DNA of 63,566 nucleotides, counting the filler, from Reclinomonas americana ATCC 50394 (lineage: Eukaryota): the NCBI GenBank assembly GCA_048213135.1. It is 9 parts of 9 records of this genome, joined end to end, with 100 filler letters (N's around TTAATTAATTAA, not from the genome) between each part and the next. Parts side by side here need not be neighbours in the genome. Positions count along the whole stretch, not along the records: positions 1 to 12,864 come from AFZH01021137.1; positions 12,965 to 23,123 come from AFZH01021139.1; positions 23,224 to 30,335 come from AFZH01021142.1; positions 30,436 to 43,878 come from AFZH01021144.1; positions 43,979 to 48,833 come from AFZH01021146.1; 4 more parts are not named here. One strand, 5' to 3'. This document shows, piece by piece, positions 267 through 47,100 of the stretch. Every line of letters starts with the position of its first letter. Position 1 is the stretch's first letter. The position numbers were made by a program, and so were the translations under genes. Below the pieces are notes generated by a model. The model was not told where the DNA came from. It saw only the letters and a program-made list of their open reading frames with translations, and made no database searches.

Positions 267-3200
267 TGTTGCCGGTCTCGCCATCGACCAAACCACGGGA
301 ACCATGTATGTCGCCGACGTGAGTGTGTGGCGGCGTGCATGAATCACGGTTGATGCATTCTGCTGACTCCAACTCTGTGCGCGTATGTTCCTCTCCCACA
401 GTTGACGAACCACGCTGTGCGTGCCGTCACTGCAGGAGCTGCTGTCACCACACTGGCGGGAAACGGAGCGTCGGGGAGTGCCAATGCCACGGGTGCAGCC
501 GCCTCTTTCAACAAACCTGTGGGAGTGGCGGTGGATGCCACGAACCAGGTGGTGTATGTGGGCGACTGGAACAACAAAAGCATTCGGCGAGTGACCTATG
601 CTGGTGCGGTGACAACCTTTTGTGGCTCGGCTGGCGCGAGTGGCACTGCCGATGGCGCGTGTGCTGGAGCGGCGCGGTTCGGTGGTCCCAACGGCGTGCT
701 TCTCGTTGGAACCACACTGTATGTTGGTGAGTGCTGTGAGAGGGAAAGCACTGGGATGCCCTTCCTCCCATCCTCATCCTCCCCACCTGCGTGTGTGTCT
801 GAGTGCAGCCGACCGCGTGAACAATTCCATCCGCGCCATCGACACGGTGGCGATGACGGTGACGACGGTGGCGGGGTCAACGAGCGGCACGTCAGGATCC
901 ACAGATGCCACCGGTGAGTTTATCATCATGTGCAACCTCATGTGATCCATTTCATTCATGCTGAAAGATGACTCCAGGAACGGCCGCCCGCTTCAACACA
1001 CCTGTGGGTATGGCATACGACGCAGGAAACAATGTCATCTATGTTGCCGATGTTGAGTACCTCCGCACACTCTGAGCGTTTCGCTTCTTGATTCTCAATG
1101 CCTTGTGCTCGACGCAGTCCGGCAACAATACTGTGCGTCAACTCCGAGTGTCAGACTCGTCAGTGTCAACGATTGGCGGCGCGGCGGGTGTGAGTGGCAC
1201 AGCCGATGGCAGTGCTCTGACCGTGGCACGCTTTTGGACACCCCACAACGTCGCGTTCGATGCATCGACGGCGTCTGTGTTGGTTTCCGACTTCAATAAT
1301 CACACCATCCGTCGCCTCTCGCTGGCGTCGCAATCAGTGTCGGCCACACCCGCCACCGCCACTGGCTCCCTCGCCACCTCCATCACCGCTTCACTGACTG
1401 GATTGATGAGCAACTGGACGTACTACTATCGCGCCGTCGGTGTCACCTCCACACCCAGCACCATCAACGGCTCTACTGTGTCGTTCAGCACCACCACGAA
1501 TGTGGCTCCGACCGACATTAGCTGCTCGTCGACGACGTATGTGTCGCCGTCGGTGGCGAATCAAGTCGTTTGTGCGCTACAGACGACGGATGCCAACACT
1601 GGCCAGTCATTCACGTACTCGATTGTCGGTGGCGCCAACAGCGCAGTGTTCTCGATCAGCGGACAGTCGCTGGTGATTGTGGCGGCGGGGCAGGCGGGCA
1701 TCTCGCTGGCGGTGACGATCAGGTCGACGGACAACGGAACGCCTGCGCTGTTCTTCGACAAGGCGTTCACCATCACCACCGGTGAGGCTCTCTCTCTCTC
1801 CTACTTCTCATCTCTTTCCCTGCTGTGCTGTGCCGGTCACTCACAATATTCCTCTTGCTACCACAGCCAATCAATCGCTGGCCACGCTGGTGGCCAACAG
1901 TGTGACAACATCGTCGGCGACATTGAATGCAGTGGTGGGCAACTCTGTGGCCGCCTCGACTATGAGCAATTCATTCGAGTGGGCACCCTCGGCGGCTGCA
2001 TTTGGTGTGACGCCAGCGGTGTCGACATGGCTTGGCACGGCGGGCATGGCGGGAACAACGGATGGCACTGGCAGTGCTGCTCTTTTCAACATGCCGATTG
2101 TGAGTATCTCGCCCCTCTCGTCGGTGACTGCTCTGCTCATGGTTGTGACGACTGGCAGAGTGTTGCGGTTGATGCTTCAGGTACTGCGTTTGTGTGCGAT
2201 CAGCAAAGCCACACAATTCGACGAGTGACGGTCGGAGGTGTGGTGTCGACATTTCTGGGAACGGCGGGAGTGTCGGGCTTTGTCGATGGGATCGGTTCCG
2301 TGGCGCGGTTTAACGGTCCCGCTGGTCTATCGATCGACTCAGCCACGGGGTATTTGTACATCGCTGATGTTGTGTTTCACCGTAAATAAGCAAGTCGGCA
2401 GTCTGTCAGGAATCACTGATACAATGTCAACAGGTCAACAACCACTCGATCCGTGTCAGTACTCCTTCTGGCTCTGTATTAACGCTGGCTGGCAACGGGT
2501 CAGTTGGCACGGCGAACGGCACCGGATCGAGCGCGAGATTCAACTCACCTCACGGCATTGTGGTTGATTCGCTCAATAGAGTGATGTACGTGGGTGACTG
2601 GCAGAACAATGCTGTCAGAAAGGCGCGTGCGTTCGTTACTGTACTGCCTGTGCCAGTGAACTCACGTTCTGGTCTTACCTCTACGCAGGTCACATTCGGT
2701 GGCGAGGTCACCACGTACTGTGGCACGATTGGCTCGCCGGGTACAGTTGACGGCGCATGTGCAACAGCACAATTTGGAGGACCCAACGGTGTGGCTGTGG
2801 ACACGACGGCCAATCGGCTGTACGTCGGTGCGTGTGTGCTTGTAAGATTATTGCGATTCATTGCGTTGTGAAACATGCACTCACCCTCTGGAGATGAGCA
2901 GCTGATCGAAGTCGCCACAACATTCGTGTGATCGACATGCTGGCGATGACTGTGTCGACTCTGGCCGGTTCCCCTACTGGAGTTTCAGGATCGACAGATG
3001 CCACTGGCACTGCTGCTCTTTTCAGCACGCCAACTGGTATTCAGGTGGACCGAGGCCGAGGTGTTCTTTATGTGGCAGATGTTGCGTTTGCATACAACTG
3101 GCAGTTTTCATGTGCATCGCCTTGCCCACCATTTGCATAGAGGAGTGGCCCGATAGTTCGTCAAATTGTTATCAGCACGGGTGCTGTCACAAGAATTGCC

Positions 3201-5899
3201 GGCGCGGCCGGAGTCGGGGGCACGGCAGATGGTGATCCACTTCTTGTCGCTAGGTTCAATGGCCCGGTATACCCTGCCCCGTGTTGTCACATTTGCGATG
3301 GTGACAACCTCTCAACCCGTGGGTGCAGGCTTATATGTCGTACCACTCCGCATCTTCCACGTTGTATATCGCAGGTGCGTGCGTGATTGCCAGCGGATTC
3401 TGCAAATGCCGCTCGTTCTGTGTCTCATCAATCTTTTCTTCAGATTTTAACAATCACACCATCCGCCGACTCACCATCGGCTCCGCCACCATCACGGCCA
3501 CACCGGCCGTCTCTGGCGTCGCCTCCAGCACCACCCTCACCGCGTCGCTCACCTCACTTGCCGCCAACTGGACGTACTACTTCCGTGCCATCTCCACGTC
3601 CACTGTGCCGAGCACCCTCACCGGTTCCACTATTTCCTTCACCACCTCCAACTCGGCACCGACCGACATTGCGTGTACCGGAACGACAATGTACGTGGCC
3701 CCGTCGACGGCCAACGCCGCTCTGTGTACAATGAGCACCAGTGACAGTGACGGTGGCCAGTCGTACACGTATGCGGTCAGCGGCGGAGCGAACGGCAACT
3801 TGTTTGCGGTGAGCGCTGGTGCACAGCTGCAGATCTCGTCGGCGGGACAGTCGGGCAGTCCTCTTCTGGTGACGATTCGCTCGTTCGATGATGGCACGCC
3901 GCCCATGTTTGTCGACAGGTCGTTCAGCGTGACGGCTGGTGAGTGATAGTTGAGAGAGGTTGTTGAGCATCTATGTCGCGCATGCTGATGTTGATTGCCT
4001 TTGTCACAAAACACGCAGCACCCGCTGTGGTATCTCTGTCGACCACCTTTGTATCGGCACTTGCTGGCCAGCTGGTGACACTGACGGGAAATTGGTTGCT
4101 GGACAACTCGGCTGATGCAGCCGCGTATGTGTTGGCCACTCCTCGATGTGGCGCCACGACGCCGCCGACTGCCGTGGCCAGCACCACCATCAGCAGTGCA
4201 TTCGGCAACTCGACCAGCGTGACGCTGACGATTGGAGCGGCGGGTGCAGCTGGTGGCACGTACGAGCTGTGCGCACGATGGACGCCGACCAGCGCTTATG
4301 TGGCGGTGTCCGCATTCGCCATTGGTGAGGGGAGAGAGAGAGAGAGAGGGCAGAGAATTCGAGCTCTCTTCTTGCGTATCTTCGTCTGAACCACATGCGC
4401 AGGAAATGTTGCGCCGAGTGACATTTTGCTGTCGGGACCGCAAACGTACTCGAGTGCGACGGTGCCATTCACGGTGGGCACACTGAGCATGGTGGATCTC
4501 AACACGGGACAGACGTCTACATTCAGCATTGTGGGTGGCATGCATGCGGCTCTTTTCAGCATCGTGGGCGGCAATCAGCTGACGATCTCGGTGGCTCCGC
4601 CGCTGAGTCGGCGACTGCAAGTGTTTGTGCAAGTGAGCGACGGGGCGCTGACGTACACCAAGCAGTTCACGATTGCGTATGGTGCGTGGGTGGGGAAGGG
4701 AGGAGACGGGAAGGGAGGTAGGAAAGATGAAGAGGAATAGTTAGGCGGTTGGCACTTTGCGTCTGAGTGTGTTTGGTGCCGATCAGTGGATACAAGGGTC
4801 GCTCTGGGAGGGCAGCAATATTATGAGTTGAGGGAGAAGAATGCAGGGCCGAATTATCAGGGGTGGAGAGGAGTGAGCGATCGCACACTCGTGTTGGTGG
4901 GTGTGCGTTTATATTGCTCGCTTGATACAGAACGCAGTTGAGAGAGAGAGAGAGAGAGGTGCACGCTGCTTGTTGTCGTCTTGCTTGCTCGCTATCTCAA
5001 GCGTCACTGATTGTTCCTTTGCACGTACAATTAGAACTACGTCTCCGCAGCGTTCTTTTGTTTATTGTGCTCGTCTCTGCGACTGCGAATGGCGCTGACG
5101 ATGATTGGGTTCGTGTGCAGCATCGAATGCAGGTTGCTCCACGGTGCAGAATGGGGTGGTGGCTCGTTGCGTTGCTTGTTCTTGAGTGCGAGACATCATC
5201 TGTCTTCTCACTCTCCATCACATCGAGAGCAGCGGCGTTGGAAGTGTGCCAGTTCGAGGCAGTGGATCGACCTGGCGGCACGGTCTTGGCCGCCATCCTC
5301 GCCGTTCGAAGCGAGGTGGCGTGCTGCGAAGCGTGCGACCGTTCCACACAGTGTCGATCGTGGACATTTCTGGATGCTGCTGCGGCGTCGAACACGTACG
5401 GCGCGAGTGTGTGCACACTGAAGGCACGTGATCGAGAGAGGAGGGAGATTGTGAGGGGAGTGATAAGCTCACTATCTGTCTTGTGTTACCTGCAGAGCAC
5501 CGTGCCAGCAGCAACAGCGAATGCAGAGACCAGCAATGTGTGTGGCTCGCATTTCTGCTTGGTATCGGGACGCAAGACGAGTGCAGCGGCGTATGACAGC
5601 AGCGGGTTCCAGACCAGCACGGGTGAGTTGCTGGAATGCTCTTCGCTCAGATGAAGGAGAATCGTGACTGATGTGGTTGCTTGCATGCAGATCGACCTGG
5701 CGGCGATCTCACGTGGGCCATCACCACCGCAAGTGGACCACAAGCGTGCTCGCTGTGGTGCTCTCAGTTGACCGCCTGCGGATCATGGACATTCACGGCG
5801 TCGACAAGGCAGTGTGTGCCGAAGAGCGGCGTGGTGGCCACGTCGGTATGGACGGCATGTGCGATGAGTGGGGACTGCACGTCGGGGTTGAAGATTTGA
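267..5899 (+). CDS. NHL-propeller/FN3/cadherin-like/PAN protein, copy A (5' partial, multi-exon)
   Basis: Spliced exons give NHL blades (GVAVD..YVGDWNN..IRRV), FN3 halves (SATLNA..SFEW / LTGLMSNWTYYYRA..VSFST), cadherin-like repeats (APTDI..TTDAN.GQSFTYSIVGG..FSISG..IRSTDNG..FDKAFTI) and two PAN/apple domains (DRPGG..CC..C....CRSWTF). Stop is TGA at 5897-5899. Confidence 0.85.
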
Positions 5900-5916
5900 G
5901 TGAAGCTGGATTATTA

Positions 5917-5926
5917 TTTGGCGCCA
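5917..5926. promoter_or_regulatory. Candidate promoter element TTTGGCGCCA (E2F-like) in the A-B spacer
   Basis: Conserved in all three spacers that precede an ATG. Perfect palindrome TTTTGGCGCCAAAA at 56070-56083 and 62248-62261. Absent after terminal copy B. Confidence 0.4.
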
Positions 5927-5972
5927 GAATTGGAGTTCCAACCGTTTCCGCGTTGCGTGAGTGCATGCGCAA

Positions 5973-9420: not shown

Positions 9421-9461
<41 letters not shown>

Positions 9462-12400
9462 GCGTTTTGGAAGATCCTTCGACCAAGTATACTGACTTGG
9501 TCGAGCAAATTGGGAAGCTGATCGAGATCGTAACAACATTCGTGTGATTGACATGCTGGCGATGACGGTGTCGACTCTGGCCGGTTCGCTTACTGGAGCT
9601 GCAGGATCGACAGATGCTACTGGCACTGCTGCTCTATTTAGCACTCCAGTTGGCGTCCAGGTGGACCGAGGCCGAGGTGTTCTCTATGTGGCAGATGTTG
9701 CGTTTCGCGATTACCTGGCAGTTTTTCATGTGCATCACCTTACCCACTACATGCATAGAGGAATGGTCACACTATTCGTCAAATTGTTATCAGCACGGGT
9801 GCCGTCACAAGAATTGCCGGCACGGCTGTAGTCGCGGGCACAGCAGATGGCGATCCACTCCTTTCCGCCAAGTTCAATGGCCCGGTATGCCCTGCCCCGT
9901 GTTGTCACTTTTGCGATGGTGACAACCTCTCAACCCGTGGGTGCAGGCTTATATGTCGTACCACTCCGCGTCATCCACGCTGTACATCGCAGGTGCGAAG
10001 TCTCCATCAAGTTGTGCGATCGTCGCTCTCTCTGTGTCTCATCATTTCTCTCATTAGATTACGGCAATCACACCATCCGCCGACTCACCATCGGCTCTGC
10101 CACCATCACGGCCACTCCGGCCACCTCCGGCGTCGCCTCCAGCACTACCCTCACCGCGTCGCTCACCTCACTTGCCGCCAATTGGACGTACTACTTCCGT
10201 GCCATCTCCACGTCCACTGTGCCGAGCACTCTCACCGGTTCTACGATGTCCTTCACCACCTCCAACTCGGCACCGACCGACATTGCCTGCTCTGCCACGT
10301 ATGTCGCACCATCAACTGCCAGCATGGCTGTATGCACGATGAGCACCAGCGACGGTGATGGGAGCCAGTCGTACACGTACATTATCACCGGCGGAGCAAA
10401 CAACAGCGTGTTCTCCCTCGGTGGCGGCGGTGCGCAGCTGCAGATCACGTCGGCGGGACAGTCGGGTAGTCCATTGGCCATCACGATTCGCTCGTTCGAC
10501 AATGGCACGCCGCCCATGTTCTTCGACAAGTCATTCAGTGTGATGTCGGGTGAGTGATGTCGATTAAGAGTACTTTATCTTTTCGGTGTGGATGCTGAGC
10601 ATGTTTTTGCGCAGTGAATAATGCACCGACGGCGGTAACGCTGAGTGCGAGCTCGTACATTCCGCCCAGCACGGTGGGTCTGGCGATTGGCACGATGAGC
10701 ACGAGTGACGTGGACTCGCAGCAGTCGTTCACGTATTCGGTGGTGGGAGGTGCCAGCAGCGCGTTGGTGACGATTGTGTCTGGGAACCAGCTGCAGTTTG
10801 TGACTGCGAATGTTACAACGTCGCTGGTGGTGATTGTGCGCACGACCGACAATGGCAATCCTGCCATGTCATTCGATCAGACGCTCAACATTGCTGGTTG
10901 CGTGTTGTTCTGACTGTGTGAAGTTGTGATGCAACAAGATGCTGAATTCCTCGCATGCAGCACCCGCTGTGGCATCTATGTCGGCCACGTTTGTGTCGGC
11001 ACTGGCTGGCCAGTTGATAACACTTACGGGTACTGGATTGCTGAACAACTCGGCTGATGCAGCCGCGTACGTGTTGGCCACTCCTCGATGTGGCGCCACG
11101 ACGCCGCCGACTGCCGTGGTCAGCACCACCATCAGCAGCGCATTTGGAAGTGCGACCAGCATCACGTTGACGATTGGAGCGGCGGGTGCAGCTGGTGGCA
11201 CGTACGAGCTGTGCACTCGATGGTTGTCTGCCAAGGGATATGTGGCGGTGTCGGCATTCGCGATTGGTGAGGGGAGAGAGAGACAGGGCAGAGAGAATTC
11301 AAGCTCTCTTCTTGCGTGTCGTCGTCTGAACAGCATGTGCAGGAAATGTGGCGCCGAGTGACATTCTGCTGTCAGGACCGCAAACGTACTCGAGTGCTAC
11401 AGTGCCATTCACCGTGGGCACACTGAGCATGGTGGATCTCAACACTGGACAGACGCCGACATTCAGCATTGTGGGTGGCATGCAGGCGGCTCTGTTCAGT
11501 CTGGTGGGCGGCAATCAGCTGACGATCTCGGTGGCTCCGCCTCTGTATCGCCGACTGCAAGTGTTTGTGCAAGTGAGCGACGGGGCGTTGACGTACACCA
11601 AGCAGTTCACGATTGCGTATGGTGCGTGGGTGGGGAATGGAGGTGAAAGAGAAAGGAAGGGGGACGGGACTGTATGATTGCTGTCGCCCTCTTTTCTCCT
11701 GTGAAGCTGCACATCGGTGGGCGTGAGTGGTTGGTGCTGAGAATTGGTGGGTGCTTGTGCAGTTTGGGGCGCAGGTTGCACGACGGTGCAGAATGGGATG
11801 GTTGCTCGTTGCGTAGCTTTTGCATGAGATGTTGACGTGCGAGCCGTCATCAGTTGTCTCACTCTCCATCACATCGAGAGCAGCGGCGTTGGAAGTGTGC
11901 CAGTTCGAGGCAGTGGATCGACCTGGTGGCACGATCCTGGCTGTGATGCCGTCTGTCGCAAGCGAGGTCGGATGCTGCGAAATGTGCGATCTGTACTCAC
12001 AGTGTCGATCGTGGACATTTCTGGATGCTGCTGCGGCGTCGAACACATCTGGAGCAAGTGTGTGCACACTGAAGGCACGTGATCGAGAGAGGAGGGAGAT
12101 TGTGAGGGGAGTGATAAGCTCACCGTCTACGTGTGTTGCATACAGAGCACCGTGCCAGCAGCAGCAGCGAATGCAGAGACCAGCAATGTGTGTGGCTCGC
12201 ATTTCTGCTTGGTATCGGGACGCAAGACGAGTGCGGCTGCATACGACAGCAGCGGGTTCCAGACCAGCACGGGTGAGTTGCTGGAATGCTCTTCGCTCAG
12301 ATGAAGGAGAACGGTGACTGATGTGGTTGGTTGCTTGCATGCAGACCGCCCTGGCGGCGATCTCACGTGGGCCATCACCACCACGAGTGGACCACAAGCG

Positions 12401-12864: not shown

Positions 12865-12964
12865 NNNNNNNNNNNNNNNNNNNNNNNNNNNNNNNNNNNN
12901 NNNNNNNNTTAATTAATTAANNNNNNNNNNNNNNNNNNNNNNNNNNNNNNNNNNNNNNNNNNNN
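12865..12964. other. Artificial contig spacer (N44-TTAATTAATTAA-N44)
   Basis: Identical 100-nt spacers with six-frame stops also at 23124-23223, 30336-30435, 43879-43978, 48834-48933, 51421-51520, 54576-54675 and 60718-60817. Confidence 0.98.
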
Positions 12965-13502: not shown

Positions 13503-15550
13503 AAAGAGGAATGGAAGTCTGCTCTCGCCGCCAAGGACATGGAGGAGGACACCTTCCAGCACGCTCTCTTCAGTCAGGACGGCGAAGGATTCGTCGACAC
13601 ACTGAACAAGGCTGCCGATTTCATGGGAGCTGTTGCGTCCTCTCCTCTCTCCTTACCCCATCACACGTGACCCACTGCTCACTGTGTTACGTAAAGGGCG
13701 AGTTTTTCGAGTTCGGCACCGAGCTCTACAAGTGTCTGGCACCCGTGTACGAGACACGGCGTGACTACAACTCCCTGGCTGAGCTGTACAGCAAGCTTTC
13801 GGTGTACAATCGCAAGATTGATCGTGCAGTTGCGACTGAAATTCTCTTCCCTCTCTTTGTTGTCTCGTGTACTCACGTTGTTGGTGTGCAGTTGCGTGAG
13901 CAAAATCGCCTGCTGGGCTCGTACTACTTTGTCACCTTCCACGGCGAGCTGTTTGAGGAGATGAATGGCGGCGAGTACATTTACAAGTTGCCGAAGATCA
14001 CTCGACTTGGCGATGTCACGGAGATGTTTGAGGTGCGTGAACAGAAGATAGCAGTGCGCATCTCTCATTATTGACTCATCCGGGGTGCGCAGCGCGCCTA
14101 CGACGGCAATGTCACAATTGTGGGTCACAATACGAACGTCGCCGACATGCCCACCAGCAAGACACACGGCGTGATTCAGCTGACGTATGTGCAGCCGTAT
14201 TTCACCCCCACCGAGAGTCTCCAGCGCATCACCGACTTTGAGCGCAACTCCAACATTTGTTGCGTCCTTTCATTTGCAACGGCGTTGTTCTGGGTGTGCA
14301 CGTGTGTTGACATGTCTCGCAGCGCACTTTGTGTTCTCAAATGTGTACTCGCAAAATCGATCACGTGACGCACCGCTGGAGGAGCAATGGAAACGCAAGA
14401 CGGTGCTGCCGGTGGACGGCGGGCATCACTTCCCCGGCGTGCTCACCCGCTTCCGCGTGGACACGGCGAGAACGGTGTGTGAGGATCCATGATGATGATA
14501 ATGTTGTCGAGGTGGTGATTGCTGACACGGGGGCGTCGGTGCGCAGCAACGGTTCGAGCTCACGCCGATCCAGAATGCCATGGAGACGATTCAGACACGC
14601 ATCTCCACGCTGGCGCACCAGATTGCGCAAGTGGAGGAGAAGCACGAAGCGGGCGAGAATCCCAATTTGAATCCGCTGCAGATGACGCTGCAGGGTTCTG
14701 TGTTGCTTCGTTGCGTAAGGGGAGAAGAGGGGAAGGGGATTAGAGGGGAAGGGATGGGAGGGGAAGGGTTGAGAGGGAAAGGGAGAAGAGGAGAAGGGAT
14801 GGGAGGGGAAGAGGAGAAGGGAAGGGAGGCGAAGGGATTAGAGGGGAAGGGATGGGAGAGAAAGGGAGAAGAGGAGATGGGTTGAGTGGAGAAGGGATGA
14901 GAGGTGATGGGATACGAGGAGAAGGGTATGAGGACAAGAGACGGATTGTGAGAAGTAGAACTTTTGTCGATCGTTTTTGGCGAGAGAGACGAGGGACGAA
15001 GGAGCAGCCACGCACGCACGCACGTTATTTGAGGAGTCTGCTGGAATGAGAGATGAAAAACGCTTCGTGTTCGTCTCTGAGAAGACATAGTGCTTGCTTG
15101 TGGCTGTGTGTGAGAGTGAAGATGAGTGTGGCAGGCAGCGGCCGGTGCGCTCGTGTATGCCTATGTGTCGAGCGAGTGACAAGAGAAGAAGAATGAGAGC
15201 CAGAAGAAGAGAACGCGTCCTCAATTATCTCACCCCATCTCCACATCCACGCAGAGGTCAATGTGGGCGCGCAGGAGATTGTGCGCACCTTCCTCACCAA
15301 TCCGGAGCGCTTTGCGGCGGAGCACGTGGCCGAACTGCGCAACCTGCTGCGCCAGTTCTTGGACGCGTGTGACTTGGGCCTGACGGTGAACGAGCAATTC
15401 ATGCCGCAGAACTCGGACTTTAGGAGAGAACTGCGCGACGGCTACGCGGAGCTGAGCCAGTTCTTCCAGCCTTACCTGGTGGACCTCTCGCCGCCGACCG
15501 CTCAGCCATTGTCAATAGCCACTGGTGATGGCGCCGATGTGTTCTCTTGA
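13503..15550 (+). CDS. DOCK-family Rho GEF, C-terminal DHR-2 domain (DOCK-C/D-like), 5' partial
   Basis: Spliced motifs RLLGSYYFVTFHG..EYIYK, IQLTYVQPYF, EEQWKRKTVL, ELTPIQNAME and LQMTLQGSVLLQVNVGA match DHR-2. Confidence 0.9.
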
Positions 15551-15634: not shown

Positions 15635-18600
15635 TTACAAGCCGAGCTCATCGACACTCCACAGCTTGTAGGTCAGGTCGTACGAGCAGGTGAGGGCAAA
15701 GGTGCCGTCTGCAGAAGGGGATGGGAGGAGGGAGGTGAGGGCACAGGGAGGAGAGAGAGAGTGAGGGCACAGGAAGGAGAGATAGTGAGGGCACAGGGAG
15801 GAGAGAGAGAGAGAGTGAGGGCACAGGGAGGAGAGAGAGTGAGGGCACAGGGAGGAGAGGGAGGGAGAGAGGAGAGTACGGGGCGAAGGCAATCAATCAT
15901 ACAACGGAATGAGCACAACGAAGGACAAAGTGCAGGCGTGCGGCGACACAAAGCGAGATCCAGGAAGATCTCCAACAGCAAATTGCCCACTCTCGGCAGC
16001 GCACAAACCTCTGGCAATGTCCATCCCCATGACGTATCCATTGTGTCCTGTTAGTCTGGCCAATTCCGTGCAGTCACGCGAGCTCCACACACGACCAGTA
16101 CCGTCAAACGACGTCGAGATGATGGCACTGCCCGACACCGGCTGTGTTGTGGGGGAGAAGACAATAATTAGGATGCGAACATTGAAGCTCATCCGCTCGA
16201 CTGCAGGCACAGCAAACCTCAAACTTGACGGCTGAAATCAACTTTGAGTGCGCCGGATACGTGATGAGCACGTCCTTTTTCCTCAAATCCCACAGCTTTA
16301 CAGTGTGGTCGTCGCTGCCAGTGACGACATGATATCTGGCGTGCACCAAGAATGTGTGAGACAAACGAAGTGCTGGTGCTGAAGAGGACACACACTCACC
16401 CGTCCGGCGAAAAGTCGATTCCCAGCACCTGCATGCATCACGTAGAGTCAGCACGCACGAAGTAGAACACAGCACACATGAGGTGGCGCACTTGCTTCGC
16501 ATGCCCGCTCAAAACCAACAGCGTTCGTCCACTACGCAAGTCCCACACTCGCACAATGCCGCCAACGTCGCTGTTGATCGAGCGAGTCAGTCACATGAAG
16601 CGAACATATGACGCATGGAAATCAACGCAACGATGATCCCAGCAGCGAGCCATCGGGGTGCACGGCCACGCCGTAGGTGCCACGCGCATGTCCCTCCTGT
16701 GTCATCAGCTCCGATTGTGTTCCCAGGTCCCACATTCTCCACGAACGATCAAAACTGTGCACAAAGAGAGATGAGGACGAGCCACGACCAGCTGGAGGAC
16801 GGCTGTATTACTCACCTGGTGGAGAACAGATACTTGCCCGTTGGATGGAACACCACCTTGCAGCAGCGATCGAAATGACCACTCAGTTTGGCAAGTGGAG
16901 TGTTTCTGCGGCGTGGCGGGATGAGCAAAGCGCGGCTGGGAAGAACAGCATGATGGAGACGAACTTTTCCTTGCTCCACAAGTACACGTCGTTCTCGGCA
17001 CCGCACGAGGCGAGAAGTACAGATGAGTCTGTGTCCATGGAGTTGCCGGTGGTCGGGTGGAAGGCGACGCTGGTGATGCGGTCGCGATGGCCTGCGAAGG
17101 GGGAGGGGGAGAAGATAGTGGGTAAAGCGGGAAAAGAGAGGGAAGAGGAAAGAGAGGGAAGCGAAGGGAAGAGAACAGGAGAGAATGGGAGAGCAATGTG
17201 GAGAGCGCAGCATTGACACAAAAACCAGTGTTGAGGCTTTGGTACGCTTTCTCATGATGCTCGTAGGAGAGAGAGGAGAAGGTGTGGAGAAGGGAGGAGA
17301 AAAGAAACGCAGGCAATGAGAAGACTAACACAAAACACCAGAGTTAAAGACACAAGATATAGTTCACGAGAGCGAGAGGAGAGGGGAAAGGGGTTGAAGA
17401 AGGGAGGAGGAGAGAGAACACAGGAAACGGGAAGACTGGGGAATGCAAGAACATGAACGCTAACGCCAGTCCAGAGGGCAGCCAAAGTTTTCCTCAAGAT
17501 ATCGTTCATGGGCGCGATAGGAGAAGGTAAAGGGTGTGAAGAAGGGAGGAGAAAAGAGAACACAGGAAACGAGAAGAATATGAACGCAAACGCCAGTCCA
17601 GAGGGCAGCGAAAGGCTTTCTCAAGATATCGTTCACGGGAGCGAGAGGAGAGGGGAAAGGGTTTGAAGAAGGGAGGAGAAAAGAGAACACAGGAAACGAG
17701 AAGAATATGAACACAAACGCCAGTCAAGAGGGCATCGGTAGGCTTTCTCAAGATATCGTTCACGGGAGCGAGAGGCAGAGGGGAGGAGAAAGAGAAACGC
17801 AGGAAACGAAATGACCACAATTTCCCTCATCCCTTTGCCTTCTACTCACCGCGATAGATCTCCGGCATGTCGGTGGCCGGCTGACACGATGGCAGAGACC
17901 ACATTTTGATGTGCTGCGTCCACGAACCAATGGCGGCCAGGGTTCCGTCGGGCGACAGTGCGCAGGCCGAGAGGGGGCGCTCGTCGCCGACTTGGGAGCT
18001 AATGTTGGTGAAGGAACGGAAGCGTGTGGCCTGCTCGTCCATGCGGGGGTGTACGTGGTTTTCGTAGGCGCGGTATTCGGCGAGGCGGGAGCGGGCCCTT
18101 TGTAGGGGGGAAGGGTGGGGGGAAAGGGAGGGGAAAGTGAGAAGGGTGGAGATGAAGGAGAACGTGATTCAAAGGAACGAAAGAATGGCGAGTGACACAA
18201 CGCCAACTGCAGAACACATGGAGGTGGTGGGATGCAGGGAGAAAGAGACACAGGGCATCGAGATCACCCCCTCTGCTCCCCCACCGTTTCCTCCCAAAAC
18301 GCACCTTTCAAACGAGTACCTCGCAATCACCTCACGCGCCGCCGTCAACTCCGCCGGGCCCTCCGTAAAGAACAAATCGGTGACCGCCGACACATCGGTG
18401 ACACGCGGTCCCGGCTCGGGTTTGCGGAACGCCTCGAAGCGCGACTGCACATCGCGCAAACGCGCCGCCTGCTCCGGATCCCTATCCATTCGCACACACA
18501 GCTCCTTCAGGCGCTCACGACGTTGCATCGGCTGTCGCGCACAAAACAAATCAGTCTCTCGATACACACGCACACAACAGCAGCTGTGCGCGCGCGCCCA

Positions 18601-20249
18601 CGCAACTCCCTCTCCAAAGAACGTCACCACCTGATCGAGTGCGCGCAGCATGGCCTTCACATCCTCCACCGCCGTCACCACGAATTGCTCGCGTGCCTTG
18701 TGCTTGACCTCCAGCTCGGCGCGCAACTCGGCCTCCTTCTCGCGCGCCAGCTTGCCCGACATGCTCATGAGGTGTGCGCGGTGCTCGGCGTCTTCGGCGG
18801 AGTCGTAGTCGCTCTCGTCGGAGCCTGCAAGGGGGGAGGAGAGGGAAGAGTGGGTGATGGGGGAGAGGGGGAAAGGGGGAGAGGGGGAAAGGGGTAAAGG
18901 GATGGAGAGGGAGAGGGAGAGGGAGAGGGAGAGGGAGTGGGAGAGAGAAGCAGAGAAAAGGTTTACGGTGCTGTGAGAGGGCGAGTGAGAGAGAACCTGC
19001 ATTGCGAGACCGCAAGCGAGAAAGATCTGCAAAGAAGAGGAAAGGCGAGAGAGCGGGAAGCGACAAGCAGGGATAAGAGACGCATTGGAGGACAGGAGCT
19101 GAGAAAGAAGCGAGACCGCGAGAGATAAACGGATTGTGAGTGTATGAGTAAACGTGAGAGGAAACTCGGCCAGCAAGAATATAAGAATGTCATGCTGTGA
19201 ATGTGCTGGTCATCAAGACATCTGTTGTTTGTTGGTGAATGAATTGTTGTTGTCGTTGTAACGAGAGACAGGGCATGCGTCGAAGAGAATGACAGGGAGA
19301 GAAAGAATGAGGAGCTGCTTGAGGAGAAGACGACGAGAGGGCAACAAAGAGAAGTGAGTGAGGAAGGAGCGACGGGCAAGAAACACACAGAAGATACGTG
19401 AGACTGAGAGCGATAAAGAGACAAGTCGTGCGAGGGACAACTTGCAAATCCCGACAAACCTTCCATCAGCTGATCGGCATCGACCATTCCCGCCATGGCC
19501 GCATCTTCCTCCTGTAGAATAACAGCAACCAAGCGATCAGAATGAATAGAACGCCAATGACAAGAAAAACAAAAAAAGAGTGTCAACTTGGACATGTCCA
19601 CACATGACTTGCAAAGAAAAGAAGAAGGCGCACAAGGAGAAGGCAAAGGTGGAGAGCAGGAGAGTGTAAGGTGTGAGAGAGTGTTTGTGTGCAACAGTGC
19701 CAGAGATGCAATGCATTAGTGAGTGAGTGAGTGAGTGAGTGAGTGAGTGAGAGAGAGAGAGAGTGCGTGTGTGCGTGTGAGTGTGTGTGTGCGTGCGTGT
19801 GTAAGAGAGAGAGAGAGAGAGTGCGCATCAGTGACAATGCACATGCAAGTGTGTGAGTGAGTGAGCGTGTGAGTGAGTGAATGTGACAGTGCCTCAGAGA
19901 AGGCGCAATCACAATGCACAATGCAAGCGTGAACATGACACAATGCACATGCAAACATGTGCGTGTGTATGTCTGTGCAAAGACAGTTCACCATGCATCC
20001 TTCCCTTCTCCCGCTCCTCACCTTCTCATCCTCCTCTCCTCCATGCGCCACCGCCACACTATCAATCTCCCCAAACGCCACTCTCTGCTGCGCGTGCTGT
20101 GTGCGCGTGGCCAGCAGGCGCGAGACACGCGCACTCTCGGCCTCGACTCGCGCGTCGTCTTCCTCATCAATCGTCGCGCCGTTTTCCTGGTGCTTTCGGT
20201 GCCGCGCAGCCTCGATGCTGGCCTCCTCCAGTGCGTCGTCAATGTCCAT
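15635..20249 (-). CDS. PRPF4: U4/U6 snRNP WD40 protein Prp4
   Basis: SFM motif [26 protein letters not shown], then [18 protein letters not shown] and [12 protein letters not shown]40 repeats include [40 protein letters not shown] and [11 protein letters not shown]. The start codon is inferred. Confidence 0.9.
17280..17810. repeat. ~127-bp tandem minisatellite (about 4 degenerate units) inside a PRPF4 intron
   Basis: GATATCGTTCA recurs at 17498, 17625 and 17752, with a degenerate copy at 17356 and conserved flanks. Confidence 0.85.
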
Positions 20250-21954: not shown

Positions 21955-23016
21955 TCACTGCGACGACGGATCCGGCGGGCTGCTCCCAGCCGATCCCGCG
22001 CTCCCTGCCGGCGGCGACGGCGTCTTGCTCGGCCGCTGTGAGGTCGGCGGTGAGACGGCGGCTTGCTTTCGTGCGGCGGCGGCCTCGGCTGCGATTTTGG
22101 AGAAAGTGAGTTTCCCCTGGGGAGCCACAGGATCCTCCGTCAAAGACGCACCTTCCGCTGCCTTGCTTCGCGTATACCTCAGCGTGCACACCGACGTGTC
22201 GCCCCCAGCTACTGAAGTCACGTCAACGTCGGGGTCTGCCTTCAAGTGCTCCACCACGCGGCCGATTGCGGTTCTGTGCTCCGCTGACGCCTCTATTGGT
22301 GTCACGATGACATCAGCACAAGAAACAGAAAATGAAGTTCATCTCCAAGCTTCAAGTACCTCGCCCAAAGTCCGCAGCAGTCAGCACTTGCGCCACGGCC
22401 AGTCGAATGTTGGGCACCGGATCCTCGCCGAGTCGTATCAATTGATCAAAGTACGTGTCGGCGAATCGCGCCCATCCAATGCCGGTGACCAGCGACGGAC
22501 ACAGGCGCACAAACCTTAACCCCACACACACACAGCAGTCAGCGACAAAGAGCACACAATGTCGGAGAAGGACATTGTCGCAACATTTGCCGCTTCTGGA
22601 ACGTCTCACTCCTTGCCATCTCCAACAGCACGTCGCGGAACAAGGACGTGGAGCTGGCGCTCTCGAGCACCCTCATCACCGTGCCCAGCTCACCCAGCGC
22701 CGCCAACCGCACCTCGGCGAACGGATCCTGCAGCAGATTGCGTGCAATGGGCTCCAGCGTGCTCTGCAAACAGCTCGATGGGCACGACACAGCCAGCTGG
22801 CCGAGTTGTCTGCAAAGTGGAGAAGTGAGTGACGTGTATTGTCATGAACGGGGGAGTGAGGGATGAGCGCGCGCGCAACTGTGCAATGGACAGTCGAATC
22901 CGCCAATTTTGTGTGGCACTCAACAGCTCCGACACCACCGGTAAAAACCTCTCCACCAGTGCTGGTGAGAGGGCCTGGAAGAACTGGCACAGCGATTGCA
23001 CCACTCCGATTTTGAC
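21955..23016 (-). CDS. HEAT-repeat phosphatase scaffold, PP4 regulatory subunit 1-like (3' part)
   Basis: NWRIRLSIAQQL, LLQDPFAEVRLAA, FQKRQMFV, LGEDPVPNIRLAVA and LKADPDVDV are PP2A-A/PPP4R1-type HEAT motifs. 5' end is lost in the gap. Confidence 0.75.
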
Positions 23017-23223
23017 CTGCGGGATGGGGAGAGGAGAGGATGAGAAGGGAGTGATGGGGAAGAGAGGGGAGGGGAAGGAGACGGAGGAGAGGAGAGGGAG
23101 AAGAGGAGAGGAGAGGGAGGAGANNNNNNNNNNNNNNNNNNNNNNNNNNNNNNNNNNNNNNNNNNNNTTAATTAATTAANNNNNNNNNNNNNNNNNNNNN
23201 NNNNNNNNNNNNNNNNNNNNNNN

Positions 23224-23597: not shown

Positions 23598-26500
23598 CCG
23601 AGGTATACCCATCGGCATCCTGCGAGAACGTCCCGCTAAGCGGATCCACCGAGAGCACGCGCTGTAGTGGAGAAAGTGCGACAAACAGTGGCTCCGCGGT
23701 GTGTATGTCGAAGCAGTAGATCTGTGTGTGTGTGTGTGTGTATGTGTGTGTGTGTGTGTGTGCGTACAAATGAGTATCTCCTTCTCTTTCCTGCTGCGCT
23801 CCACGGAAGAGAACGCAACGACCACGGCGGCCAGTGACATGGCAGTGGGGTACTCGATGTTGATGTCGACTGTGAGATCGCGCGTCTTGATCATGTACAC
23901 TTCGGGTTCGTGGACCTGCTGGCAGCAGTGAGAGTGACATGTGTAGAGCGTGAATCATAACGGTGGCCTACACACATCGTCGGCGGTGGGCTGGCGGAGG
24001 TAATCGCCGGTCGCCAGCGGCAGCCAACTGACGCACAGCTGGCGCCGATTGGGGTGCGGTGGCAGCTTGACCTCGATGGTGTACTTGCGCTGCTTGACGA
24101 CGAGGCGCGGGGCGCGGTCGCGCACCTGCCAGCCAGATTGATGAGAGGGAGGGAGGGAGATGGATCGCAATCTCTCACAACGCAACCGAGATGCCGCAGC
24201 CCATGCGCAGCTCGCGCAGGCAGCGGGATTCCGCGTCGGTGTCGGTCTGCAGATCCTCGACGTGGAACTGATGGTGGTCGCGGTAGTGGAGGCACACAAT
24301 GTCGGTGAGAATGCTCAGTGTTTCCTCCTGGTCGAGGCAAGGTCAGTAAACGAAGAGATTATTATCCAAGAGTGGGAGGAAGAGGTTTTTCTGTTTTGCA
24401 GCGGTGAGTTCTCTCACCTGTCGCTCTGCTCTCGTTCTGACGGATTTGGAGAGATCGCGTCGCTGCAGTTGCAGGTTGGCCAGCTGCGTTGTCGGTGAGT
24501 GACTTACTTCCGTCACACTCATGCCAACTCATTATTCACCTCCATGCGCTGGGCACAGACGTGCTTGACGTGTCCACGGAGGCCCTCCTCTGTGTTCTGC
24601 AGCATGGCGTAGAGGCGTGTGTCAACTGCGGCGCGGATAGAGTGCAGCTGTGTGCGGCGCAGCGTCAGAACGAGATTGTAGAGAAGCAGGGGGAAAGCTG
24701 TGCGCAACTGTCTCGTCGTTTCCGCGATGCACTTGCATCGCATCGAGGCGCTCGACGAATGCCGCCGCTGTGTGTCGCGTCAGCGGTGAGAACGGTGAGG
24801 GGCGTGCGGAAACAATTGTTACTGACCGACGCGAGCTGACAGTTGAGTTGCCGATGGTACCAACTGCGGAAGCAGCAGGAGTGAGGTGAGTGTGATTGAA
24901 GGAAGGGTGTTCTGTCACTTCCTGCCACCTCAGTCTTCTGTCGCCATCTCTCTCTCTCTCTCTCGTTCACTCGAAGGAAAAGAGGAGCATTCTGCCACGA
25001 GAGAGCAGGAAAGAGAGAGAACGAGATAAACAGTAGCAGCAAGAGATAACTGTAGCAACTCGAATCTCAAAGCCTATCCCGTCTCTCTTTTGCTTTTTAA
25101 CTGTTTCTACTCTCATTTTCCTTGTTATCGCCATCACATTTCACTTTTCCGTCAATTTGCTAGCTTCTCAATCCCAGTATCTCGCGCATTGTTTTTTTCT
25201 CGCTCTCCCTGTCCGTTCTTTCCCCCTTCCACTCTCCCCAGGGAATGCTTCAGCTGTCTTACAGTCACTCTTGGTACTTCAACTTAATGTCCCTCTTTTC
25301 TCTTTCTATCACTCAGTGTCCTCGTTTTCTTTCATGCCTTGCAGTCCACCACTCTATCTCGACGTCTTCAATTCTCGAGCACTGCCATCTTTCTGTCAGC
25401 CCTCTCTCTCACTTTCTCCCTTTCGTTCTCCTTGTCTCCACCCCCATATCTCTCCCGACTGTCAAGACATGCCACAATGCGTGCACGTGCCGCCTTTGTT
25501 TATGGCGATCTCCTCTTTGGCATTCTTCCTCCATCTCCTTCTTCTCTCAACGTGGACGCACTCCCACATCCTCATCACTCCGATCGCACTTATCTCACTC
25601 TAGTTTCTCTTTCTTCTGCTTCCGTCATGCTTCCAACTTACAGGGCACGCCCACATGTCGTTTCCCTCTCCTTTCCCTCTCCTTGTAGTCCCTCTCTCTC
25701 ATCCCCTCTCTTGCTCTCCGTCTCCCCTCTCCTCCTTTTCTCTCACCCTGTATTCCCTCTCTTTACTTCGCTCTCTTCCCCCTTTCCCTTTTCCTTGCTT
25801 TCCCTCCTCTCTCTCTCTCTTCCCCCTGTCTCTCTTACCCCACTCTCTCTTCTTTGTCAGTCCCTTTCCTGCCTCTCCCTGTCCTTTTTCTCCTCCCCTC
25901 TCCCCTCCATCCCTTTCCCTTTCACCCCCTTCCCCCTTCCCCCTTTCTCCCCCTTCCCCTCCCTAGCACTCACTTTGTACAACCCCTCCTCCTCCCTCAC
26001 GATCCTCGTGTGCCTCGTGCAGTTGCCCCTTCCCAGAACCCTGGTCAGCCTGGACCTTACGTCACCACGAACACTGACTGGCTTCGAACGCAGCGTGCGA
26101 TTGGTGACAGCCTGCCGGGGAACAGAGCAAGGTAAGCATGCATACACCTTTCGAGAAATGCTGATCAGCCACGCACCATGTCACTCCACTCCTCGTCCTC
26201 CTCCTCCTCATCTTCCTCCTCTTCCTCCTCCCCCTCATCATCACCATCACCGTCCTTTTCGTCACGCAGAGGAGGCATGCTGATCTGCTGTCGATTGCGC
26301 CGGCGAGTGCGGGGCGCATCGGTGTCGACGGTCGTGCTGCTAAATGCCGCTGCCTGCGTGAACGTCACCGACGACTGCGACGGGCACAAGTCGTCGCCAT
26401 CCTCCTCCTCCTCCTCCACCGCCTCCACCTTGCCCTCCTCATCGTCGGACAGCGGCAGACTGATGGAGAGCATGGTGGCCGCCGCCTCGTGCATGGCCGA

Positions 26501-32478: not shown

Positions 32479-32601
32479 TGCCAGTGTGTCTTGACCATTC
32501 AGAGAGCTCCTTCCCTGCACACGAGGAACGTCACACTCGAGAGACAAGTGTCCTTCTCCTCGCGTCCTGCTCCACTCATTCACAAGTGTCTCTGAGGGAG
32601 A

Positions 32602-34984: not shown

Positions 34985-35043
34985 TGCCAAGTAAACAATT
35001 CATTTTCGTTTAAAGAGATAATACACGGACTGCACACACGTAA

Positions 35044-44162: not shown

Positions 44163-47100
44163 TCGCGACTGCGGGAAGCCAATGTGTCGCGTTTCGTCGC
44201 CAAACCCAAACTGCGTCACTTGCGCGTACGCCATTTGTGTCACGCGCTGGAGGTCATCCTGGGCGCCGGTCGACAGGTGACCAAACACCAGTTCCTCGGC
44301 AGCACGGCCGCCGAGTGCCATGCACAGCGTGTCGAGAATCTGCATTGCCGAAAGCTTAGAAAACCCCTTCTGCGTTGCGAAAACAATGAAAGTCTGCGCA
44401 CCTCGGCCTGCGTGCGAATGTACTTTTCCGACTGCAGGTACTGCGCGTAGCCGAGTGCAGCCTGGCCACGCGGAATGATGGAGACCTTGACGAGTGGCGA
44501 ACAGTGTCGCAGGAACCACGAGGTGATGGCGTGGCCGGACTCGTGGAACGCCACAATGCGCTTCTCCTCCGGCGAAAGCACGCGCGTCTTCTTCTCCAGG
44601 CCACCAATCACTCGATCAATGGCGGCCTCGAATTCCGGCAGCGTGACGACCTTCAGGTGGCGACGAGCGGCAATCAATGCGCCCTCGTTGCACACTGCGA
44701 GTAGGAAGAGAGAAGGGTGAGTGAGGCAAAGCGAGAGTAACAAAGAAAGTGAGAGGCGACGTGGCAAGACCATTGGCAATGTCGGCACCGGAGAAACCGG
44801 GAGTCAGCTGCGCGAGGCGTGTGGCAATCTTCTCCAACTCGTCCTCCTTCAGCTTGATGCTCTTCAGGTGGACCTACGAAGGGAATGGAGAGAGTTGAGA
44901 CTTGATGCTGCAAGCCAAAAGAACTCAAGTCAAGGAGAACCTTGAAAATGGCGCCGCGCTCCTTCACATCCGGCAGATCGACGTAGATCTGACGATCGAA
45001 GCGACCGGGGCGGAGGAGGGCCTTGTCGAGGCCGTCAATGGGTACGTTGGTGGAGGCGAGGACGACGACGTCGGTCAGCGTGTTGAAGCCGTCGAGTTCG
45101 ATCAGCAGCTGGTTGAGGGTGTTCTCGCGTTCGTCGTTTCCGCCGCCACTGCGTGAGAGGGGAAGGGTGGGTGATGGAGAAGGGGAAGGGGAAGGGGGAA
45201 GGGAGGGGGGAGGGGGAAGGGAGAAAGGGAGAAGGATGGAAGGGAGGAGGGGGAAGGGAGGGAGGAGGGATGAGGGCAAGAAGAGAAGAGGGCAAGAGGG
45301 CAAGAGGGCAAGAGTGGAAGGAGAAGGAGGGAGGAGGGAGAAGAATACACTTCCCTTCCCTTCCCTTCCTCCCCTCCCTCTCCCCTCATCACTCACCTAA
45401 ATCCACCCCGCCCACGCGGCCGTCCAATAGCGTCAATCTCGTCAATGTACACAATGCACGGCCGCTTGGCGCGAGCCGTCTGGAACAGATCACGCATGCG
45501 CGCCGGGCCGACGCCGACAAAGATCTCCATGAAATCAGAGCCCGAAATGGAGAAGAACGGGACTCCGCATTCGCCGGCCACGGCCTTGGCCAGCAGACTG
45601 TCGAGCAACGAGTGAGACATGAGCAGGGGAGACTGAATGATAGGTGGCGGGGGACGCAACGTCTTGCCAGTGCCGGGCGGACCCATGAGAATGGCACCCT
45701 TGGGAATCTTGGCACCGAGGCGGTTGAAGCGCTCGGGATTCTTCAAGAAGGTGACGAACTCCTGGACCTCGCGCTTGGCCTCCTCCATGCCGGCCACGTC
45801 GTTGAAGGTGGTGCGGATGTTGGTCAGCTCGTTGTACTTTTTGGCTTTCGACTGTGAAGGAGGGAAGGGTGGGGAAAGGACAGAATAGGGTGAGATAGGG
45901 AGACTGAGAGAGAGAGAGAGAGAGAGGTAGAGAGAAGGAGGGCAAGTGGGAGAGGGACACAAAGAGAGGGAGAGTAAGAGGGAGAGAGCACGCGAGAGAA
46001 CAAGGAGCAGATAGCACGTGGGAAACATGAGAATGAGAGAGTTGAGAACGAGGCAGAGAACACACAGATCCCGAGAACGAGTCGCCGCGACATGCCTAAA
46101 TCGACAGATAGAGACAGACAGCGAGATAGAGAGGGAAGAGAGAGAGAGAGAGAGAGAGTAGCAAAAGGGAGCTTGAGAACGAGTAGCAGCGACATGCCTG
46201 TATCGACAGGTAGGCAGGTACAGACAGACAGCGAGACAGAGGGAAAGAGAGAGTAACACAGGGAGATTGAGAACGAGTAGCAGCGACATGCTTGAATCCA
46301 CAGAGAGGCAGCCAGAGACCGACAGCGAGACAGAGAGGGAAAGAGAGAGTAGCACAGCGAGTTTGAGAACGAGTAGCAGCGACATGCCTGAATCCACCGC
46401 TAGGCAGGCAGAGACAGACAGGGAAAGAGAGTCACAAACAGGGGAGGAAAATAAGGCGGAGAAGACAGAGCGCAAACAGCGAGGCAGCCGGGAAGGAAGG
46501 AAAGGAAAGAGAACAAATAGTACGTCACAAAGAGAGCGGCGGCGAGAGGAAGATGATTGACGACTGGCTGAGAATGAGACAGAACGAGACACGCCGACAC
46601 GGAGGCACACTCTCACACAAACGTCCACTCACGCACCCTGGTGATTCCAAAGATACCGCCATCGCCCCCGCCTCCAAGTGGACCAGAGTTGCGCGCCGAG
46701 CGTAACATCAGCGCAAAGAAACCAATCAGCAGCAGGGTAGGCGCGAAAGCCATGAAGACGGAGCCCCAGTCACGCTCGAGAGCATAGGTGATGCCGATGC
46801 TGTCGACCGGCATGCCTAGGCGTCGCATCTCGCTGTCCAGCCGCGTCTCCAGACTCTGCAGAGAGCCAATGGAGAAGTCGTATTGATGGACCTGGGGAAA
46901 TTCAAAGTCAGGAAGGTGGGTCGGCAGTGGCGTGGTGCGCGGTGCACAAACCTCGGGAGCGGTCGGGTCACCGCCACGTCGCATGTACACTTTTACTCGG
47001 TTGTCGTTAACTACCTCGAGGCGAGAGACCTGCGATATGGGGCAGAAGTGAGCGGAAGAGATAGATTCGAATTTCTTTTCCCAACACAAACCTCGCCACT

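Follow-up and report, generated by a model that had tools for sequence, protein, structure and literature searches.

In a 63.6-kb window of the genome of Reclinomonas americana ATCC 50394 (assembly GCA_048213135.1), the window being the whole stretch of DNA that was analyzed, with about nine contigs joined end to end, introns starting with GTTGCG, mostly followed by T, very probably represent a genuine and major class of 5′ splice sites (donors) that makes up about one third of the donors that could be checked. They occur in unrelated genes, side by side with introns of the usual type, and may be recognized by U1 in a register that is shifted by one base.

Donor composition in curated genes

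The exon-intron structures of five genes (AFG3, PRPF4, DOCK, a protein kinase gene and an ARM/ZZ gene) were built by hand from the sequence and then checked by coordinate, and each of the five splices to one open frame with the expected protein features. Among the 40 donors curated in this way, 13 start with GTTGCG, and 11 of these have T at +7. The other 27 donors resemble G/GT(G)NGT, where the slash marks the cut site: 23 have G at −1, 25 have G at +5 and 19 have T at +6, while position +3 is occupied by G (17), T (6), A (2) or C (2), and one of them belongs to a GC-AG intron. Donors beginning with GTG have C (8), A (7) or T (2) at +4, and over all 27 canonical donors C at +4 is found in 11.

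The two groups differ at the last exon base, which is G in 1/13 GTTGCG donors versus 23/27 others (Fisher test, 3.7e-6); with five uncertain donors dropped, the values are 1/12 and 21/24 (6.5e-6). The single G aside, GTTGCG donors are preceded by A (4), C (5) or T (3). All 13 have C at +5 and G at +6, both being fixed by the defining hexamer, and 15 curated donors lack G at +5, 13 of which belong to the class.

The original prediction had named 20 GTTGCG introns in unrelated genes and had described them as a major donor type without the −1 G that is typical of other donors. Both statements are borne out by the curated genes, since the spliced open reading frames (ORFs) are clean in all five and the boundary is fixed by conservation at four sites. 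GTTGCG was present on the given strand at all 20 positions, as GTTGCGT in 17 cases, as GTTGCGA in two (13829, 22584) and as GTTGCGC in one (22879), and a recount again gave three sites with an exonic G at −1 (10897, 24186 and 39393). Ten of the 20 sites lie in introns with a clean ORF of a recognizable protein, namely 13632, 13829, 14259 and 14710 in DOCK, 16631 and 18606 in PRPF4, 36501 in the kinase gene, 38136 and 39393 in the ARM/ZZ gene and 45660 in AFG3. Seven are frame-consistent by reading, without homologue comparison (3081, 9697, 10897, 22584, 22879, 23819, 24186), and three are ambiguous. Two class donors were found in addition, at 41485 (GTTGCGT) and 40792 (GTTGCGC).

The variants GTTGAGT, GTTGTGT, GTTTCGT and GTTCCGT, which had also been predicted, do exist, and all are located at one conserved position of NHL blades, directly after ...YVAD. 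Donors at this position read GTGAGTG (5), GTTGAGT (4), GTTGTGT (3) and GTTGCGT (2), besides GTTTCGT, GTTCCGT and GTCAAGT, and the exon ends with the T or C of the Asp codon. With these variants, the general form of the class would be GTT-NN-GT. GTTGAGT and GTTGTGT donors were found in NHL genes only and in none of the five curated genes.

Another common donor type is G/GTTTGTG, with examples at 16008, 6438, 46951, 47091, 49422 and 62772; the heptamer GTTTGTG occurs 23 times in sense and once in antisense orientation. This type retains G at −1 as well as G at +5, so no shift of register would be needed to read it; its positions +3 and +4 are both U.

Motif distribution and intron prediction

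GTTGCGT occurs 28 times in the window, compared with 11.2 ± 3.6 expected occurrences, and none of 100 shuffled sequences reached 28. Within the 46,310 nt of genes that could be oriented by Pfam matches, 23 copies are in sense and none is in antisense orientation, a strand bias that among GT-initial heptamers is exceeded only by the (GT)n microsatellite. The curated exons (7,256 nt) contain no GTTGCGT and two GTTGCG hexamers, GTTGCGC at 18727 and GTTGCGA at 36806, which are evidently unspliced.

A donor-blind parser, in which an acceptor matrix, a branch motif and a length prior were derived from 21 curated introns and the donor was required only to be GT, called 126 introns in sense and 10 in antisense orientation of the oriented genes. 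GTTGCG was the commonest donor hexamer among its sense calls (11/126), followed by GTGAGT (8), GTTTGT (7) and GTGCGT (6). The parser recovered 18 of its 21 training introns and, among 16 kinase and ARM/ZZ introns curated later, 10 exactly and one ambiguously; it misplaces some donors (3086 for 3081, 14695 for 14710), is blind to the GC-AG intron and serves as support only. Scoring of acceptors alone, with a model trained on 14 curated non-class introns, gave a signal that is weak per site: relative to antisense GT sites, 17 of the 28 GTTGCGT sites were at the 84th percentile or higher, and none was above the 97.5th. An earlier ab initio parser based on codon bias and intron composition was discarded; it drifted onto CT-rich low-complexity sequence and recovered only 3–4 of 15 curated introns.

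Splice junctions of individual introns

The AFG3-type protease gene has a 63-nt intron at 45598..45660 (− strand; C/GTTGCGT) that splits the Walker A motif (GKT/LLAKA). A full-length FtsH/AFG3 homologue aligned by tblastn with a 21-residue insertion in the window exactly between GKT and LLAKA. A hidden Markov model of 109 FtsH/AFG3 proteins was used to score every combination of donor and acceptor within 15 nt that preserves the frame (320 in total); six deletions of 63 nt tied at the best value of 231.6 bits, compared with 210.2 bits for the unspliced sequence, and only the pair 45660/45598 has GT at its start and AG at its end. A further GTTGCGT (44156..44162, −; A/GTTGCGT) follows the last readable AFG3 exon, where the ORF ends; the intron runs into the contig linker at 43879–43978 and so stays unclosed.

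In PRPF4, removal of the 75-nt intron at 18532..18606 (−; A/GTTGCGT) joins ...FFGEG to PMQRRERL in a clean ORF, and human Prp4 has ...TLFGEGPAERRER at the aligned place. The 61-nt intron at 16571..16631 (−; C/GTTGCGT) lies inside a WD40 blade and was also recovered by the donor-blind parser. The spliced PRPF4 ORF is clean through all 9 curated introns; a word search for PRPF4 homologues returned only an unrelated Streptomyces WD40 protein.

Four class introns were found in the DHR-2 part of the DOCK gene (+ strand), whose spliced C-terminus forms a single open frame to the stop codon. The 65-nt intron at 13632..13696 (T/GTTGCGT) meets a stop on read-through. The 63-nt intron at 13829..13891 (A/GTTGCGA) leaves a clean ORF; the Pfam Lobe A match ends at 13822, and the alignment with DOCK9 covers both flanks, with about 20 residues missing from DOCK9 precisely where the 63-nt stretch lies. 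The intron at 14259..14322 (64 nt; T/GTTGCGT) likewise leaves a clean ORF and was found by the donor-blind parser. The GA-rich intron at 14710..15254 (545 nt; C/GTTGCGT) joins ...LQGSVLL to QVNVG..., and the ORF continues into Pfam DHR-2 Lobe C. The intron 13829–13891 is flanked by a 9-nt direct repeat, GCAGTTGCG, at 13826–13834 and 13888–13896 (+), and a second GTTGCGT spans its acceptor.

The MAP3K-like kinase gene contains a 60-nt class intron at 36442..36501 (−; C/GTTGCGT) near the end of the kinase domain. The frame continues after the intron, and the alignment with ASK1 ends at ...FFRLCLTP, in the codon containing the donor G. The same gene has a GC-AG intron of 60 nt at 37090–37149 (−; AAG/GCATGT), joining ...DDNGIAK to LADFGASK; with any GT donor, the conserved DFG region would be out of frame.

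The ARM/ZZ gene (− strand) has a clean ORF over 10 introns, four of them of the class. Read-through of the 65-nt intron at 38072..38136 (A/GTTGCGT) stops after 15 codons, and that of the 58-nt intron at 41428..41485 (T/GTTGCGT) shifts the frame into a stop, the spliced ORF being clean. The introns at 39328..39393 (66 nt; G/GTTGCGT, one of the few with G at −1) and 40728..40792 (65 nt; C/GTTGCGC) also leave clean ORFs; the latter is less certain, as its read-through is open too. The donor-blind parser recovered 38136, 39393 and 40792. For 13632, 14259, 14710, 16631, 38136, 39393, 41485 and 40792, either the frame needs splicing or recognizable domain segments get joined.

Among the sites outside the curated genes, a 60-nt intron of an NHL-repeat gene at 3081..3140 (+; T/GTTGCGT) follows ...LYVAD; read-through stops, the spliced frame is NHL-like, and introns are also present at this blade position in other NHL blades. 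A second copy of this intron, in a gene copy of 85% identity, lies at 9697..9758 (62 nt, +; T/GTTGCGT), with a putative acceptor from the acceptor-only scoring. An NHL/cadherin-like gene has a frame-consistent intron at 10897..10960 (64 nt, +; G/GTTGCGT), which was recovered by the donor-blind parser. The idea that 10897 and 3939 are one intron with different donor classes in two gene copies was dropped, as one of the copies (copy B) has an extra exon there according to blastn. Frame-consistent introns were also read in the HEAT-repeat-like gene at 22810..22879 (70 nt, −; A/GTTGCGC) and 22515..22584 (70 nt, −; T/GTTGCGA; AAG acceptor), and in an unnamed gene at 24126..24186 (61 nt, −; G/GTTGCGT) and 23722..23819 (98 nt, −; C/GTTGCGT). 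At 5166, the motif may serve a 47-nt mini-exon as its donor or lie within a longer intron, the frame being kept either way, and at 6079 the upstream exon start is not clear.

Branch sites, acceptors and intron type

All 12 closed class introns of the five curated genes start with GT and end with AG. Their median length is 64.5 nt versus 67 nt for other introns, with 11/12 and 18/25, respectively, in the range of 55–80 nt. A YTNAY branch motif was found in 11/12 class introns (CTCAC 6, CTGAC 3, CTGAT 1, TTGAC 1) and in 21/25 others, and CTCAC or CTGAC in 9/12 and 11/25. The branch A lies a median of 16 nt before the 3′ end in the class and 21 nt in the others, and the acceptor is CAG in 10/12 and 23/25 cases. 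Removal of class introns restores conserved protein in AFG3, PRPF4, DOCK and the kinase.

Judged by these sequence features, class introns are ordinary U2-type GT-AG introns, with 3′ halves that are indistinguishable from those of other introns. U12-type introns, with the donor motif RTATCCTT, are similar in having a long, nearly invariant donor without exon consensus; they differ in motif, branch site and spacing. An identity of the class with U12-type introns was rejected, as its donor is GTTGCGT and the window's other introns share its branch motif and spacing. The shared 3′ signals, together with a lack of extra similarity among class introns (see below), speak against a minor-type system of its own for the class and against an intron family that spread recently.

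Register of U1 pairing and alternative explanations

As originally predicted, an offset of one base brings /GTTGCGT into line with G/GTGCGT. The G at +5 and the T at +6 of the other donors (25/27 and 19/27) have their counterparts in G at +6 (13/13) and T at +7 (11/13) of the class. The block of the usual donor, G/GT(G)NGT, would thus sit one base deeper in the intron as G-x-T-G-C-G-T. G+1 would take the place of the last exon base in the pairing with U1, U+2 would form a mismatch, and UGCGU (+3 to +7) would be paired. Cleavage by the catalytic core would nevertheless be at the sole available GU, one base upstream of the position to which this register points. With the first G of the intron occupying the slot of the −1 G, an exonic G would no longer be needed. 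The model requires a lineage-specific U1 with G at position 5, opposite the C, as in ACGUAC of Mastigamoeba balamuthi, and a U6 that tolerates one extra nucleotide between GU and the paired CGU.

Duplexes with the U1 5′ end were folded in ViennaRNA. With a G5 U1, class donors had a median of −4.2 kcal/mol in the shifted register and other donors one of −7.3 kcal/mol, and the predicted structure of class duplexes was G+1 paired, U+2 in a 1x1 mismatch and UGCGU paired, not a bulge. The absence of GTTGAGT and GTTGTGT from the curated genes, alongside C, A or T at +4 of GTG donors, would be explained if pairing required the complete UGCGU block. Taking the motif pattern and the modeled duplexes together, we give shifted U1 pairing about an even chance of being the way in which the class works.

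Several points weigh against this reading. With a standard U1 5′ end, the class median was +0.5 kcal/mol, which is almost no duplex, versus −6.0 kcal/mol for other donors; the class barely pairs with a standard U1, so that the mechanism would rest on a predicted change in U1. An Rfam scan returned no RNA family in the window, and hence no U1 or U6 within it. The exon bases show no visible slide: the idea of exon positions moving along with the intron is not borne out, since A at −1 of the class (4/13), compared with A at −2 of canonical donors (14/27), cannot be distinguished from background. Position +8 of the class (C 7/13) is also unlike canonical +7 (G 11/27). The 1/13 with G at −1 is an absence of enrichment and not proven avoidance. 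Pairing with U6 would require a bulge beside the catalytic center, and tolerance of such a bulge at so high a frequency is not known. Finally, the junctions are predicted from DNA sequence, three of the 20 predicted sites (5166, 6079, 44162) are ambiguous, and the sample is one window of about nine contigs in which several sites are duplicates of each other.

The original prediction had left open shifted or bulged recognition, and the pattern in the DNA is that of the shifted form. In a bulged register, G+1 and U+2 would pair normally, the U at the third base would be flipped out and pairing would resume at GCGU. Such a register would form as many base pairs as the shifted one and would account equally well for G at +6 and T at +7, without displacing the cleavage site relative to C8 and A7 of U1; the bulge +3(+2) register has moreover been validated in human cells, according to PMC4856993. 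The last exon base would then still face C9 of U1 and G at −1 should stay favored, but it was found in 1/13 class donors versus 23/27 others, and folding preferred the 1x1 mismatch to the bulge. We regard the bulged form as unlikely. A dedicated second recognizer, either a U1 paralogue complementary to GUUGCGU or a sequence-specific protein acting early on a common U2-type core, would fit a heptamer that is far more uniform than other donors and has no exon consensus, as in the strongly conserved U12-type donor, and U1 variants matched to atypical donors are described for Archamoebae in the accessible text of bioRxiv 10.1101/2022.06.08.495308. Such a recognizer does not predict the exact one-base slide from the commonest canonical donor, nor the variation of donors at the NHL blades (GTTGAGT, GTTGTGT, GTTTCGT, GTTCCGT), and the 3′ signals are identical between the classes; this explanation appears rather improbable.

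Common descent instead of recognition would account for the uniform motif if introner-like or duplicated elements starting with GTTGCGT had recently propagated, and the direct repeat bordering 13829–13891 is of the kind that points in this direction. No such repeat was found at the other class introns read, however, and lengths and branch sites are the same as in all introns. In addition, introns of at most 90 nt (11 class, 18 others) were compared after trimming of the donor 8-mer and of 4 bases at the 3′ end; pairs of class introns had a mean local similarity score of 7.60, pairs of other introns one of 7.68 and mixed pairs one of 7.40, which makes an intron family very unlikely. Much the same low probability applies to misplaced boundaries or unspliced insertions, that is, true donors elsewhere or in-frame stretches kept in the protein. 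Apart from the ambiguous sites and the predicted nature of the junctions, which leave room for it, four class introns are multiples of 3 without stops (45660, 18606, 13829, 36501), so that read-through is formally open. Their retention would insert 20–25 unrelated residues in the Walker A motif, the PRP4 motif, the DHR-2 domain and the end of the kinase domain, at places where homologues lack them or homology stops; the location of the 36501 insertion in the kinase fold is what we take it to be from our own reading. The AFG3 segment also scores higher when spliced, the other eight class introns were called frame-requiring (read-through of 40792 being nevertheless open), and a strand bias of 23:0 would be unexpected for coding sequence.

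Comparison with known splice-site systems

Shifted-register sites are rare in mammals, where a few dozen human sites are known. The class described here resembles them in having GU at the cut followed by U, a U1-complementary block one base deeper, and G at +6 and U at +7. It differs in frequency (13/40 donors), in the block, which is UGCGU instead of UAAGU and pairs poorly with standard U1, and in being predicted from sequence. In the account that Tan et al. 2016 (PMC4856993) give of Roca and Krainer 2009, all 5′ splice site/U1 pairs move by one position. The bulge register (Roca et al. 2012, cited in PMC4856993) shares with our class the extra U after GU and the G moved to +6; pairing of the −1 G is kept there, whereas G at −1 is not enriched here (1/13). 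Within the same portion of that article, both the shifted and the bulge +3(+2) registers are given as proven in human cells, and the accessible text of PMC6140464 names G at +6 as a hallmark of shifted or bulged sites.

Lineage-wide departures from GURAGU are described in bioRxiv 10.1101/2022.06.08.495308 (Roy and Bowser), of which a part was available. In Entamoeba the donors are GUUUGU and U1 has co-evolved with them; Mastigamoeba balamuthi prefers GUGCGC donors and has a U1 with ACGUAC. The preference for C at +4 in our canonical donors (11/27) is like that of Mastigamoeba, whose U1 with G at position 5 is what the shifted model needs, and the G/GTTTGTG donors recall the Entamoeba consensus. 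As far as the available text goes, both of these lineages have one transformed consensus in the normal register, in contrast to two proposed registers in the same genes here, and +6 is mostly T (19/27) and not C in our donors. The same part of the preprint reports GYGCGY donors in Mamiellales green algae and C at +4 in the apusomonad Thecamonas trahens, with a standard U1 kept and Mamiellales being intron-poor. GTGCG(T/C) donors and CTGAC-type branch sites of these organisms resemble our canonical class; a shifted class is not mentioned in that part, and the intron-poor Mamiellales differ from R. americana with at least 9 introns in PRPF4. Diplonemid donors, G/GTATG in the available part of PMC12621601, were considered and are unrelated to the class.

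A literature search found no GTTGCGT or GUUGCG donor class, and occurrences of the motif among the papers listed were incidental, e.g. in primers. A search on atypical splice consensus sequences in protists and on Mastigamoeba found none with a shifted class beside the normal one at about one third in the same genes; the donor logos of bioRxiv 10.1101/2022.06.08.495308 lie outside the part of the preprint that was covered and may include a minor GUU class. Shifted and bulged registers as minor mammalian modes and lineage-wide donor changes are thus already known, while a shifted class that coexists with the normal one at about one third within the same genes was not found in print.

Gene content of the window

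The window has 57% G+C and is eukaryotic, with short introns. Its 16 runs of N form eight spacers (12865–12964, 23124–23223, 30336–30435, 43879–43978, 48834–48933, 51421–51520, 54576–54675 and 60718–60817), each with 44 N, 12 bases and 44 N; the 12 bases read at 23124–23223 are TTAATTAATTAA, a six-frame stop linker. Adjacency across a spacer need not be genomic. Several contigs terminate in (CT)n or (GA)n repeats, and genes cut by spacers are incomplete, e.g. at the 3′ end of AFG3.

The Pfam scan covered 300 of the 318 stop-free ORFs of at least 100 amino acids, the other 18 being the last ones, from 59.5 kb onward. Pfam matches located NHL/PAN surface-protein genes at 1–12.8 kb and 49–63.5 kb (+), the C-terminal DHR-2 part of a DOCK protein at 13.5–15.5 kb (+), PRPF4 at 16.0–18.8 kb (−), PIG-U at 32.8–35.0 kb (+), the MAP3K-like protein kinase at 36.2–37.7 kb (−), the ARM/ZZ protein at 37.9–43.7 kb (−) and the AFG3/FtsH-type protease at 44.2–47.1 kb (−). 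A gene at 21960–23040 (−) gave no Pfam match for ORFs of at least 100 residues; its translation resembles a HEAT-repeat scaffold of the PP2A-A/PP4R1 kind. The best matches of the AFG3 exon are FtsH/AFG3 proteins of 64–71% identity, mostly bacterial by name. The PIG-U exon gave 591 matches, of which the full-length ones are 23–39% identical and include fungi and an amoebozoan, while the single match of 51% is a 130-residue fragment. A metagenome contig (L001, 3001–3066) with 24 residues 60–63% identical to a DOCK exon start was dismissed as a chance match, as it has no other DOCK segment and a different composition.

NHL/PAN genes are repeated on separate contigs at 85–99% identity and may be recent duplicates, alleles or assembly redundancy; donors in these copies are therefore not independent observations. 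Repeated segments of 87–99% identity are 3800–4120 and 53940–54260; 5990–6260, 48974–49244 and 62326–62594; and 5060–5300, 55214–55463 and 61369–61628. A few long introns carry CT- or GA-rich low-complexity sequence and tandem repeats (17092–17849, −; 14710–15254, +; 45852–46636, −), and the long intron of PRPF4 contains a unit of about 120 nt four or five times.

Implications

The cut site is thought to be tightly tied to pairing with U1 and then U6. The sequence pattern and the modeled duplexes suggest, with a probability that we put slightly below even, a spliceosome that uses two registers on one U1-binding block, about two thirds of the introns being read as G/GTNNGT and about one third as /GTTGCGT, by means of a changed U1 (G opposite the C at +4/+5) and a core that tolerates an extra U. 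R. americana would then be the first organism with a non-canonical register as a main mode. If this is true, it would provide a natural system for studying what sets the position of the cut if U1 pairs out of register, and it would show co-evolution of U1, U6 and Prp8 with the donor sequence as well as slack in the active site. As for annotation, about one third of the introns here would be missed or misplaced by gene finders that rely on one donor matrix or expect G at +5, resulting in protein models that are frameshifted or bear insertions, as in the Walker A motif of AFG3.

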